NCBI RefSeq assembly: GCF_024700885.2
Contig: NZ_CP117016.1
Length of the DNA stretch: 64,000 nt
Reading direction: 5' to 3' (one strand)
Source: Escherichia coli
GTDB lineage: Bacteria > Pseudomonadota > Gammaproteobacteria > Enterobacterales > Enterobacteriaceae
Positions 7,376 through 10,387 of this stretch are shown piece by piece. How positions within the stretch are numbered: position 1 is the first letter of the stretch; each line of letters begins with the position of its first letter. The notes beneath the pieces are model-generated. The model was not told the DNA's origin, made no database searches, and saw nothing but the letters and a program-made list of their open reading frames with translations. Both the position numbers and the translations under genes were made by a program.

Positions 7376-7388
7376 AAAATCCCAAAAA

Positions 7389-7416
7389 AAACCAACCGTA
7401 AAGGTTGGTTTTTTTA
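7389..7416 (+). terminator. Rho-independent terminator of proL
   Basis: Stem AACCAACC/GGTTGGTT followed by TTTTTTT. Confidence 0.85.
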
Positions 7417-7476
7417 TATCTGCATTTAATTCGATAAACAGACCGCGACACATCACGGCCTGTTTATTGTCTGTTA

Positions 7477-10068
7477 TCAGAACGACCAGACCACACCCAC
7501 CTGAGTATTCCACGGTGATTCTACCCCTGCGCCATTGCCATAGCTGACAGACAAATGACCGCTTAACGTCGGGGTAAACGATGACCTTATCCCAGCCTGA
7601 TAAACGCCACGGGTTCCAGCCACATCATTATTAAATTTGCCATCGTCATTAACTTTCACCTGGTTAGAATCGGCGTATTCCTGACGTACGGCGGCTTTCA
7701 GCCAGGGTTCCAGCGTCGTACCGTTTTGCAGGTCCATGTGATAGCTTACCGCCGTTCCCGCTTCAGCGCGTAATATGCGGGTATTTCCCACATCCGCACG
7801 CATGCCGTTTGATAACGTGTAGTCCTGACCATCTGTGGTAAAGCCGGTAAAGGCCAGATAAGGTCTAACACTCCACAATCCGTCAACCCAACGGAACCCG
7901 CTCTCGACATGAGCACCCGCGCCGTTACTATTGTAATCGCCAAACGCTGTTGCCCCATTACTCATCTTGCCATGGATGGTGTTGGCAAAACGGTCAACTT
8001 TCACCACCCCATCAACATAGGCACCGTTCTGATGCTCCCAACCGGCATAAGCCCCCAGGGTATAGCTATCGACATTGCCTTTGCCGCCGCGATCAAAACC
8101 AATATCAGAATGAGAGTAACCAAAGAACAAGCCGCGAATTGTACTGCTTTCTTCACGGGAGAAACGGCTATCGATACCGAGCGTCAGGCCCGTCAATGTT
8201 TGCTCAAAGCCAGCTCCCGCATCAGTGGTCACGTTGTTGCGGGTGTTAATTGCCGAACTCCACATCGCCGTATCGTAACTAACGCCTTTTACGCTACCAA
8301 GACGCTCACGCACGGTGTCCAGTTCTGCATCAAATACCAGCGGTTGTGCTGCCGCCATATTCAGCACATCAGTGGTTGAAGGGGTAATTTGCGCGCGATT
8401 CTCTGCCAGACTCCAGCTATGGTTGCCATTATCCAGCAAGGTATATTCATACGTACCGATATCAACAACGCCTCCGGCATTGCCCAACGTAAATGCAGCA
8501 TCACCGCCGCCCGTTGTTACCAGTGTAAGGCTATCACCTGCTGCCGGGCTGGCCCCCGTGTCCGTCACAAATATTTTGAAATCACCTGTTGCCTGACCGG
8601 TGACGTTGAGCTGATCGCTCTGATGATTAGCCATATCGGTACGCATATAAAAATTTCCGTTTCCCGACAGGGTATTGGTAGTCAACATAGTGAAATTTTC
8701 CGCAGTTGCCGTCACAGATGATCGAGTCACTGGTTCAGCCATCATAATCACATTTGCGCCGGACATCGCAAGGTTGGCTAAGTTGAGGCGAGTGTTTTGG
8801 TTCGTCGTAGTGTTATCGGCAATGATGGTCCATGCGCTATTTTCGAGCGAAACATCCGCTTTGCTGGTATCCACGGCACCATGCGTTCTTAAAGAAGCGC
8901 CCTCAGAAACCACGACACTACCCACCAACATAGCGGGTGCATAATTTATTTGCGGCTTCATGACCTCAAGAATGCCATCATTCCCTCTGACTGAAACGTT
9001 AACCATCGTGCCAGCCCAGACATTAGCGCGGCCATTGTTGATAACCATATTTTCAGAGATGGCTTTAGAGGAATACGTTATACTTCCATTCTGATCTGAT
9101 CGACCGAGATCATATACCGCATTTGCCTGCACTCTCGTACCAGTATCCTTTCCCAGCGATTGCATAGTGGCATGCTCATCAAGGATAGTGTCAATGGCCT
9201 GCGTGTCCTCCATAACAATGAGCCCGGAACCATCATCCAGTTCATAATTTTTTGACACACCATCTTTTATACTAAATTGGCCTTTACTGTTTGTACCACT
9301 CACTTCCAGTGCATTCGTTGAGACAATTAATTTTCCGCCTGCTTTTTTATCAACGCCAGTTGCAGTCCCGCCATCCATAACCTCCAGTAAGCCGCCACTA
9401 TCCACAGTGGTATTATAAGCGAAGTCATTTTCTTCAACTCGCAAACTTCCGCCGTTTTCCAACAGCATATTATTAGCAATACCATCCTTGATATCGAACT
9501 GACCGAGACGGTTTGTTCCGAATACCTCCATGGCCCGCGTGGTTGTTTTAATCGCACCGCCTGCTTTCTGATCTACCGCAAATGCTAATCCCCCCTCTTT
9601 AACCTCCAGTAATCCTCCCTTTTCGATAGCGGCAAAGACGGTAATCCCATCTTTTTCAATAATTAAGCGCCCGCCTTTAATGGTGGTATCATTCGCTGCG
9701 CCATAAACCTGTAGCACACCATTATTGAGGGTAGTCTGGTTTGCTGCGCCACCCATTTGAACAATTTGATAACCATCATTTAATACTGAGTATTCTGCGG
9801 TGCCATTCATTTCAATGTACTGATACCCGCCGTTAATTTCAGTATTACTACTTATACCAAATTCTTTAATATGCTGTTCTCCGCCAGGATTGATTTTCGT
9901 ATTATTGGCGGTCCCATAAACCAGCTGGATATCTTTTTCCAGGACAACACCATCAACTGTCTCACCATACTCAACTGTTGATGCCAATGCTATGGGTGAA
10001 TATAACGCTGTAGCCACCAGAACAGATATTGCGGAACGACAAAGAGAAACAGAACCAGATTGATGCAT
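7477..10068 (-). CDS. yejO: Autotransporter adhesin YejO (863 aa), apparently intact
   Basis: N-terminal signal-peptide-like region, Gly/Thr/Asn-rich passenger domain, C-terminal beta-barrel ending ...VGVVWSF (terminal aromatic); position between proL and narP. Confidence 0.85.
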   Translation of the reverse strand: MHQSGSVSLCRSAISVLVATALYSPIALASTVEYGETVDGVVLEKDIQLVYGTANNTKINPGGEQHIKEFGISSNTEINGGYQYIEMNGTAEYSVLNDGYQIVQMGGAANQTTLNNGVLQVYGAANDTTIKGGRLIIEKDGITVFAAIEKGGLLEVKEGGLAFAVDQKAGGAIKTTTRAMEVFGTNRLGQFDIKDGIANNMLLENGGSLRVEENDFAYNTTVDSGGLLEVMDGGTATGVDKKAGGKLIVSTNALEVSGTNSKGQFSIKDGVSKNYELDDGSGLIVMEDTQAIDTILDEHATMQSLGKDTGTRVQANAVYDLGRSDQNGSITYSSKAISENMVINNGRANVWAGTMVNVSVRGNDGILEVMKPQINYAPAMLVGSVVVSEGASLRTHGAVDTSKADVSLENSAWTIIADNTTTNQNTRLNLANLAMSGANVIMMAEPVTRSSVTATAENFTMLTTNTLSGNGNFYMRTDMANHQSDQLNVTGQATGDFKIFVTDTGASPAAGDSLTLVTTGGGDAAFTLGNAGGVVDIGTYEYTLLDNGNHSWSLAENRAQITPSTTDVLNMAAAQPLVFDAELDTVRERLGSVKGVSYDTAMWSSAINTRNNVTTDAGAGFEQTLTGLTLGIDSRFSREESSTIRGLFFGYSHSDIGFDRGGKGNVDSYTLGAYAGWEHQNGAYVDGVVKVDRFANTIHGKMSNGATAFGDYNSNGAGAHVESGFRWVDGLWSVRPYLAFTGFTTDGQDYTLSNGMRADVGNTRILRAEAGTAVSYHMDLQNGTTLEPWLKAAVRQEYADSNQVKVNDDGKFNNDVAGTRGVYQAGIRSSFTPTLSGHLSVSYGNGAGVESPWNTQVGVVWSF

Positions 10069-10387
10069 TGAGCTTTCATCCTATGAAATTAATTGCTGTT
10101 AAAAGCATTGGGTAGAGAAAATACCCATAGCTCCATACCCGGAGTCAGTTTTTAAAAACTGTTTAAAGAAATGCACAAGTATTGTGATTGATTTTTTAGT
10201 TGTTTTTCTTGATGAGAAGCTGATGCAAAATTCCGTCTTTATAATGAAAATGATGCCAAAGCGAACGACAAGGTTGTAGTTTTCGCTACATGTCCATACA
10301 TAAAATGGGGTAACATTCACGCGCCTGGTAGCGTTACCAACGCTACGCTCAAACATAATGATTCTAATAAAACCTCAGGAGACTACT

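Follow-up and report, generated by a model that had tools for sequence, protein, structure and literature searches.

An intact chromosomal yejO allele in Escherichia coli and the type Va autotransporter it is predicted to encode

The 64,000-nucleotide stretch of E. coli DNA analysed here (the window) carries an uninterrupted chromosomal allele of yejO, whose product is, by its sequence, a classical monomeric autotransporter (type Va, AT-1) of the AIDA-I/Ag43 structural kind. We are highly confident of this reading, in which a single IS5 event makes the difference from K-12, and found no evidence contradicting the identification of the gene. The observation is real, ordinary and already known, and the adhesin role of YejO is a candidate one. 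Its importance past housekeeping is limited.

Organisation of the yejO locus

The gene order at the locus is yejM-proL-yejO-narP, and the position of yejO between proL and narP, downstream of yejM, is conserved. yejO and proL are convergent, with 101 bp between the end of the tRNA-Pro and the yejO stop codon (Table 1), in agreement with a sequence-only reading of this DNA that had placed the gene beside a tRNA-Pro. That reading had also called yejO a complete 863-aa ORF, and the frame is indeed open from ATG to stop. Positions 7200-10500 of the window align to E. coli MLI114 as one unbroken alignment with 100% identity over this 3.3-kb locus, and the identical MLI114 sequence is annotated by PGAP as an intact CDS, "autotransporter YejO" (WP_151298335.1). 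Given this single-piece alignment, there is no insertion sequence within 7200-10500.

A consensus scan located a terminator-like hairpin between the two convergent genes, on the minus strand (7415 to 7385), with a T-rich tail after the stem. A symmetry of A-run and T-run is visible in the sequence, and the hairpin is probably a bidirectional terminator. Of the Rfam families scanned for across the window, only tRNA had a match within the yejO locus.

On its other side, yejO is separated from the divergent narP by an intergenic region that holds no mobile element and is 99.4% identical to that of K-12. This gap had been described as a clean 289 bp; it is clean, but measures 319 bp from the narP start at 10388, which PGAP uses in MLI114 and in every other record examined. 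The shorter figure arose because it was counted from the first ATG (10358) of an extended narP ORF, which lies in frame, 10 codons upstream of the PGAP start. An 85-codon ORF on the minus strand of this AT-rich region (10099..10356) has no PGAP call in any record examined and was taken as spurious.

Table 1 Features of the yejO locus, in window coordinates.
Feature	Position	Strand	Description	Basis
proL, tRNA-Pro(GGG)	7299..7375	+		ARAGORN; Rfam RF00005
Terminator-like hairpin	7385..7415		13-pair stem (A7...T7 palindrome), between tRNA-Pro and yejO	Consensus scan
yejO CDS	7477..10068	-	863 codons + stop; ATG start, no internal stop	ORF list
Predicted translocator, residues 582-863	7480..8325	-	Linker + outer-membrane beta-barrel	PF03797, TIGR01414, 3qq2
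Codon W789 (TGG)	7702..7704	-	In the barrel; intact in window, stop in a widespread pseudogene allele
Predicted passenger, residues ~30-560	8389..9981	-	AIDA-I/Ag43 beta-helix type by sequence	PF16168, TIGR04415, PDB sequence matches
Pertactin-like domain, residues 431-555	8404..8778	-	C-terminal end of passenger	PF03212, PDB 1dab and 7akv
First 74-residue repeat unit, residues 168-241	9346..9567	-		Global alignment vs WP_000554212.1
Predicted Sec signal peptide, residues 1-29	9982..10068	-	MHQSGSVSLCRSAISVLVATALYSPIALA/S	Sequence inspection and hydropathy
IS5 target site	10002..10005		ATAA on +, TTAT on gene strand; uninterrupted in window	Window vs MG1655
yejO-narP divergent intergenic region	10069..10387		319 bp, AT-rich (36-39% GC)	Composition profile
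narP	10388..11035	+	Response regulator, 215 aa (MPEATPF...)	ORF list and PGAP start

Predicted architecture of YejO

YejO has the sequence hallmarks of the type Va class: a signal peptide, a beta-helical passenger with a pertactin-like junction, and a barrel that ends in an aromatic residue. The signal peptide and terminal barrel noted in the sequence-only reading are therefore both recovered, the first by inspection and the second by domain and structure matches. In the predicted signal peptide, the basic residue R11 precedes a hydrophobic stretch, S12-A29 (Kyte-Doolittle mean 1.4-1.9 in 12-residue windows), and the segment closes with A-L-A/S. The passenger contains two matches to PF16168 (AIDA; 168.7 bits, E 2.7e-50) and three stretches of the TIGR04415 repeat (66.7 bits against a cut-off of 30). 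It also holds two tandem, divergent 74-residue units (residues 168-241 and 242-315, identical at 30 of 74 positions), which a self-BLASTP of YejO at E<=1e-3 did not report.

The pertactin-like domain matches PF03212 with 150.5 bits (E 2.5e-44), and in related autotransporters this segment is the autochaperone. Towards the C terminus, PF03797 covers residues 602-841 (E 2.5e-45; 155.6 bits, cut-off 26) and TIGR01414 covers residues 457-863 (E 8e-111; 371 bits, cut-off 16), while the BrkA translocator 3qq2 aligns with residues 582-863 and the chain terminates in ...VVWSF. Domain and PDB sequence matches, with E values from 1e-37 to 1e-111, settle the predicted fold class. High full-length identity to named YejO proteins, together with the conserved proL-narP position, identifies the protein as a YejO orthologue; to the representative of a cluster of 863-aa "autotransporter YejO" proteins (16,859 member sequences), identity is 97% at 100% coverage.

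Among structures in the PDB, the sequence matches are to Ag43, TibA, an AidA-I family adhesin, Vag8, pertactin and the BrkA barrel, and the passengers 7koh, 4kh3, 7ko9 and 4q1q match at E 1e-27 to 1e-37. Like Ag43 (Flu), AIDA-I and TibA, YejO combines AIDA-type repeats (PF16168, TIGR04415), a pertactin-like junction and a PF03797 barrel, and by analogy it probably acts as they do, as a surface beta-helix mediating contact. It is, however, a structural relative of Ag43 and AIDA-I rather than an orthologue. The Ag43 equivalog NF033177 scores 134 bits and the AIDA-I equivalog NF033176 scores 72 bits, each against a cut-off of 1200, so the functions of Ag43 and AIDA-I are not simply transferable to YejO.

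Its passenger, at ~530 aa, is also shorter than those of Ag43, AIDA-I and TibA. AIDA-type imperfect repeats are a target of heptosylation, and the aah-aidA and tibC-tibA loci carry a linked heptosyltransferase gene. At the yejO locus itself, no heptosyltransferase (aah/tibC type) or other glycosyltransferase ORF adjoins the gene, the neighbours being tRNA-Pro and narP. YejO resembles pertactin, BrkA and Vag8 of Bordetella in its translocator and in the pertactin-like segment at the C-terminal end of the passenger: Vag8 (7akv) aligns over residues 458-862, and pertactin (1dab) matches the pertactin-like domain. Its N-terminal passenger is unrelated to theirs, and the organism and biology differ.

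The IS5 lesion of K-12

The YejO of the window corresponds to YejO b2190 of K-12 MG1655, at the same locus and with the same 863 aa, and differs from it by the absent IS5 and by replacements that fall mostly in the passenger. By BLAST and junction inspection, MG1655 yejO contains a 1195-bp IS5, flanked by a 4-bp target duplication, at codons 22-23 within the predicted signal peptide, and PGAP flags the gene as a pseudogene with its N terminus missing. A single insertion event in the K-12 lineage accounts for this difference: IS5 parted the promoter, start codon and signal peptide from the remainder of yejO. The disruption of K-12 yejO by IS5 has been reported before (PMC11005336; PMC11677980).

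The sequence-only reading had placed an IS5 copy in this neighbourhood of K-12 and described yejO as annotated there as disrupted, and both statements are accurate. Its further statement that no IS element precedes narP is true of the window, but the implied intergenic placement of the K-12 copy is not, since that copy sits within yejO. Alignment with MG1655 finds K-12 yejO neither identical nor intact. Removal of IS5 from MG1655 in silico restores an 863-codon ORF that differs from the window at 29 amino acids (96.6% identical), 24 of them in the passenger. Between the two alleles, 44 codon differences are synonymous and 29 non-synonymous, a crude dN/dS of ~0.2.

The IS5 target site is intact in 5015 of 5426 complete E. 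coli genomes and split in ~368. Three split-site genomes that were sampled are K-12-sized records (~4.6 Mb), and the K-12 lesion appears lineage-restricted. With so few sites split, IS5-free yejO is the normal state of the gene and not a feature of the source strain. K-12 is the exception at yejO, which is useful to know where its annotation serves as the yejO reference. Intact alleles are readily at hand in the source strain and in BL21, whose yejO encodes the full 863 aa.

yejO is a core-locus gene

Of the 5426 complete E. coli genomes, 5425 contain a match to the yejO locus, with tRNA-Pro and narP on either side in every case. On a contig of a sister Escherichia species, the order is ccm-narP-yejO-tRNA-Pro-yejM-yejL-yejK, with flanks ~90% identical and YejO 75% identical. 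yejO is a core-locus E. coli gene, not an island gene.

Adjacency to a tRNA could suggest another origin, with yejO as cargo of a horizontally acquired island at tRNA-Pro and its presence or absence reflecting strain-specific acquisition. The 3′ end of proL is a phage and satellite integration site in other strains: in strain 2013C-3277, an element is inserted at the tRNA-Pro/yejO junction, and in Shigella flexneri 1c the junction is occupied, with proL as the integration site (PMC4924310). The GC content of yejO, 48.1% against 51.0% for the window, points the same way. Against this, the site is empty in the window, the junction being uninterrupted here and in 4940 of the 5426 genomes, and neither an integrase, nor an att duplication, nor a directly repeated copy of the tRNA 3′ end borders yejO. 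Where elements have truly integrated, they occupy the gap between tRNA and gene without including yejO, and the absences observed reflect internal deletions of yejO rather than precise excision. Because practically every E. coli, and the sister species too, has the gene in this slot, its position beside a tRNA does not imply island cargo. We consider an island origin extremely improbable, and on these data effectively refuted.

Allele states across E. coli

That the state of yejO differs between strains, as had been proposed, is confirmed by an ORF-state census, a rough, evenly spaced sample of complete E. coli genomes, and the variability arises by decay. The full ORF is kept in ~40-50% of sampled genomes. 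About one in five sampled genomes has an allele with a stop at W789, and a similar share has large deletions; other lesions are IS5, IS1203 and an in-frame repeat deletion. Four records annotated with an "internal stop" all read TLEP*LKAAV in translation and represent the common W789 stop, and in two nonsense-allele records the start codon is mutated as well.

For M-17 and strain 124 the deletions were mapped to exact end points; the remaining deletion classes are assigned from annotation and coverage. In M-17, the segments corresponding to window positions 7507-8135 and 8593-9596 are missing. Strain 124 encodes a 789-aa YejO (WP_000554212.1) through an in-frame 222-bp loss of residues 168-241, the first of the two tandem units; a search for direct DNA repeats >27 nt to explain this deletion found none.

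The part of Wells et al. 2010 relayed in PMC3426408 describes yejO as intact in commensal and diarrhoeagenic strains and truncated in UPEC, and the gene is missing from ST131 (PMC5654935). The sampled decay pattern agrees with both accounts. Both the IS5 insertion of K-12 and the truncation in UPEC had thus been described in print before. The census adds to the account of Wells et al. 2010 relayed there and leaves it unchanged; pan-genome work on the decay of adhesins may find it a useful lead.

Many E. coli lineages have independently inactivated yejO, and the window holds the unbroken form, not a strain-specific acquisition. Frequent pseudogenisation across lineages suggests that YejO is dispensable in many niches. 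The window allele is itself a minority one: 38 of the 5426 complete genomes are >=99% identical over the 3.3-kb locus. Its rarity, the very frequent loss of yejO in the species and the start-codon mutations of the two nonsense alleles, a sign that lesions accumulate, would all fit an ORF that is open yet functionally dead, a pseudogene through missense or regulatory mutation. We regard this as very unlikely for the window allele, which matches each domain model strongly over its full length, retains its start codon, signal peptide, W789 and terminal WSF, and differs from K-12 mostly by synonymous changes.

A functional allele could also be one side of niche-dependent antagonistic selection. 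The intact gene of this stool isolate would then be expressed and serve gut colonisation or aggregation, whereas selection would act against it in lineages living outside the intestine or kept in the laboratory, one conceivable reason being that the protein is a target for immunity or phages. This idea is prompted by the combination of purifying selection on open alleles (dN/dS ~0.2) with recurrent lesions, of which there are at least five independent types (W789 stop, IS5, IS1203, large deletions, repeat deletion), more than half of the sampled genomes being without a full-length ORF. We offer it as a speculative and unlikely reading.

Proposed export, function and expression

From what is known of the family, the 29-residue signal peptide of the intact protein would direct passage through Sec, and the C-terminal ~280 residues would be assembled by BAM into an outer-membrane beta-barrel. 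The ~530-residue passenger would then be threaded out, with beta-helix folding begun at its pertactin-like C-terminal segment. The expected outcome is a surface-exposed stalk, probably adhesive or self-associating. A contribution to strain-specific adherence, put forward in the sequence-only reading, is a candidate role suggested by homology alone, and the literature searched yielded no experimental study of YejO function.

H-NS silencing is known for other K-12 autotransporter adhesin genes. yejO might likewise be intact but cryptic, with transcription shut off in ordinary conditions, H-NS binding to its AT-rich 5′ region being one possible cause, and contribute nothing to the adherence of the source strain. 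We put the chances of this at about even. A cryptic gene is compatible with our identification of yejO and competes instead with the suggested role in adherence.

Several observations favour silence. The intergenic region has 36-39% GC and the 5′ third of yejO 41-46%, whereas the flanks have 51-58%. The 319-bp intergenic region has no sigma-70 consensus, although the scan carries little information, having returned three sites in the whole region where 5.6 are expected by chance. More than half of the sampled genomes tolerate a null allele. K-12 yejO is among the least-detected genes in an RNA-seq compendium, found in only 106 data sets and ranked 4501 (PMC10392735). These K-12 data, however, derive from the IS5-disrupted gene and say little about intact alleles, because IS5 separates the gene from its promoter, which has been called "uncharacterized" (PMC11677980). 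The literature searched held nothing specific on H-NS or other regulation of yejO and no direct H-NS or expression data for an intact allele. Set against silence is the dN/dS of ~0.2 between the two lineages, which indicates purifying selection and therefore that YejO is expressed somewhere.

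An intact autotransporter gene of ordinary form

In the window, yejO is an already known gene, present in the usual intact form. As the sequence-only reading had claimed, it is a complete, uninterrupted frame adjacent to a tRNA-Pro gene (proL), from which a spacer of 101 bp separates it. The narP gene lies upstream of yejO and is divergent from it. The gap between the two is free of mobile elements, as claimed, and shares 99.4% identity with the corresponding K-12 region, but its proposed length of 289 bp came from using the first in-frame narP ATG (10358). The narP ORF reaches 10 codons (MILIKPQETT; window 10358–10387) 5′ of the start called by the NCBI annotation pipeline (PGAP), which is 10388 in every genome examined and gives an intergenic region of 319 bp. 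The yejO gene has 48.1% GC, compared with 51.0% for the window, and low values cluster in the gene's 5′ third and in the intergenic region.

Features of the yejO locus and of the encoded protein
Feature	Position	Strand	Remarks
tRNA-Pro(GGG)	window 7299–7375	+	Also found by Rfam; convergent with yejO
Terminator-like hairpin	window 7385–7415		13-pair stem; inside tRNA-Pro/yejO spacer
yejO ORF	window 7477–10068	−	Single ORF, 863 codons, ATG start
IS5 target duplication	window 10002–10005; MG1655 locus (L001) 4304–4307, 5503–5506		Codons 22–23, signal-peptide hydrophobic core
yejO–narP intergenic region	window 10069–10387		319 bp
Signal peptide (predicted)	residues 1–29		MHQSGSVSLCRSAISVLVATALYSPIALA followed by S; one basic residue, 18-residue hydrophobic core, A-x-A site
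74-residue unit	residues 168–241, 242–315		Two divergent copies, 30/74 identical
PF16168 (AIDA)	passenger		Two matches, E 2.7e-50
PF03212 (pertactin)	residues 431–555		Passenger, E 2.5e-44
TIGR01414	residues 457–863		E 8e-111
PF03797	residues 602–841		C-terminus, E 2.5e-45

The chromosome of E. coli MLI114, isolated from human stool in Mali, matches window 7200–10500 at 100% identity, and PGAP calls an intact 'autotransporter YejO' (WP_151298335.1) on it. The protein also aligns over its full length, at 97% identity, with the representative of an 863-aa YejO-named cluster of 16,859 member sequences.

All elements of a type Va autotransporter are present in the YejO sequence, in the correct order and uninterrupted. 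The signal peptide and terminal beta-barrel noticed earlier both hold: the N-terminus is predicted by inspection to be a standard-length Sec signal peptide, and the C-terminus matches PF03797 and TIGR01414. The protein ends in VVWSF, and an aromatic C-terminal residue is expected of an outer-membrane barrel. Among solved structures, YejO is closest in sequence to the Ag43 passengers, an AidA-I family adhesin, TibA, Vag8, pertactin and the BrkA translocator, the last aligning over residues 582–863. YejO is a structural relative of Ag43 and AIDA-I rather than an orthologue, since its scores against the respective NCBIfam equivalog models (134 and 72 bits) fall far under the cut-off of 1200.

By analogy with the autotransporter family, YejO export would be Sec-dependent, and barrel insertion would be assisted by BAM. 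The passenger would then be threaded out C-to-N and fold into a beta-helix, with the pertactin-like segment as the nucleus. We can only speculate that this helix might serve as an adhesin or self-associating surface. Equally a matter of speculation, its TIGR04415-type repeats might be targets for heptosylation, were an Aah or TibC type enzyme present in the strain; no gene for one lies next to yejO. Homology aside, the proposed role in strain-specific adherence is not supported. The yejO promoter has been termed uncharacterised (PMC11677980), and by analogy only, the AT-rich region upstream would be compatible with H-NS silencing. The only expression result found concerns the IS5-disrupted K-12 copy, which a large RNA-seq compendium records in 106 data sets (rank 4501; PMC10392735).

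The K-12 lesion lies inside yejO

Alignment with the K-12 reference MG1655 agrees with the sequence-only reading on an IS5 copy and a disrupted yejO, but places the element inside the gene and not in the intergenic region. The two loci are collinear save for this 1195-bp insertion. The 4-bp target duplicated on either side of it (plus strand ATAA, gene strand TTAT) fits three of the four positions of the IS5 target consensus YTAR. PGAP annotates K-12 yejO as a pseudogene without its N-terminus. In-silico excision of IS5 and one duplication copy yields a stop-free 863-codon ORF, whose product shows 29 residue differences from the window protein; 24 fall in the passenger. The codon differences (44 synonymous, 29 non-synonymous; crude dN/dS ~0.2) indicate that open yejO alleles are still evolving under constraint. 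Targets of CTAA and CTAG are mentioned for other IS5 copies (PMC11677980).

In the narP–ccmH spacer (window about 11040–11063), K-12 carries ~150 bp of additional REP/BIME-like palindromic sequence (L001 6565–6715), with a terminator hairpin (TAGCCCGATGG...CATCGGGC) duplicated at its borders; in the window there is one hairpin and the insert is absent.

Intact yejO is the commonest sampled state

Three sequence queries were run against the 5426 complete genomes of E. coli. The 3.3-kb locus was matched in 5425, and in 4284 a single place covered at least 80% of it. A 206-bp query centred on the K-12 IS5 site was uninterrupted in 5015 and split into two places in ~368, and all three split records sampled were K-12-sized (~4.6 Mb). 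The tRNA-Pro/yejO junction was uninterrupted in 4940.

Evenly spaced rows of the locus search gave 39 chromosomal records, of which 35 were resolved. The 863-codon ORF was open in 15, the commonest single state. In eight, large deletions had taken out the barrel along with much of the passenger, and seven were classed as the nonsense change W789stop (four translated, three by the PGAP 'internal stop' flag). K-12 IS5 accounted for two rows, IS1203 for one (O157:H7 strain F8798), and in-frame loss of residues 168–241 for two. The full ORF is thus retained in roughly 40–50% of complete genomes, a figure kept approximate by the small systematic sample and biased collection. Intact, IS-free yejO is not peculiar to this strain, and is almost certainly ancestral. 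The K-12 lesion and the lineage-dependent truncation have both been published before. In agreement with our sample, Wells et al. 2010 (as cited in PMC3426408) describe YejO as present in commensal and diarrhoeagenic genomes and as truncated in UPEC, and PMC5654935 reports yejO to be missing from ST131.

W789stop (TGG in the window, 7702–7704) reads TLEP*LKAAV, within the barrel, in all four translated records (L008, L020, L026, L028). Two of these have also lost the ATG start, and their yejM alleles differ. With 7/39 sampled rows flagged 'internal stop' (four translated), one nonsense allele may cover about one-fifth of complete genomes. Strain M-17, a large-deletion genome, lacks window 7507–8135 and 8593–9596. 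In KMi025 and J3, both among the open rows, PGAP starts an 846-aa yejO at codon 18; J3 has a normal, open 863-codon ORF including the ATG, and the later start looks like an annotation inconsistency that would drop the signal-peptide n-region from the protein record.

Strain 124 encodes a 789-aa YejO, intact according to PGAP, that lacks in frame exactly one 74-residue AIDA-type unit (residues 168–241; window 9346–9567). Together with forms of 771 and 829 aa found by protein search, this suggests that passenger length may change in steps of one or more complete repeat units.

A conserved position beside a used tRNA gene

Although a tRNA neighbour might suggest an island gene, we rejected this reading for yejO because its position is conserved in a relative with ~90% identical flanks (yejK–yejM 89.5%, ccm 90.5%). 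Gene order there, ccm–narP–yejO–tRNA-Pro–yejM–yejL–yejK, is that of the window, and the relative's YejO has 862 aa and 75% identity. Across the passenger half and the intergenic region identity is only 81.6%, so the exposed part evolves faster.

Mobile elements using proL sit between the tRNA and yejO, and this junction is interrupted in ~9% of complete E. coli genomes. Strain 2013C-3277 (L008 1–5700) carries a satellite-like element at the tRNA-Pro 3′ end (next to the equivalent of window 7373), beside yejO, with ash-family, Icd-like, RepA-family helicase, small terminase and major capsid genes. In Shigella flexneri 1c, a gtrIC prophage remnant lies between proL and yejO (PMC4924310).

An Rfam scan of the whole window at the gathering threshold also matched MicF, naRNA4 (CssrE) and the L25 ribosomal-protein leader (listed at 32231–32324, 35985–36061 and 3558–3583), all as expected for this chromosomal region of E. 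coli.
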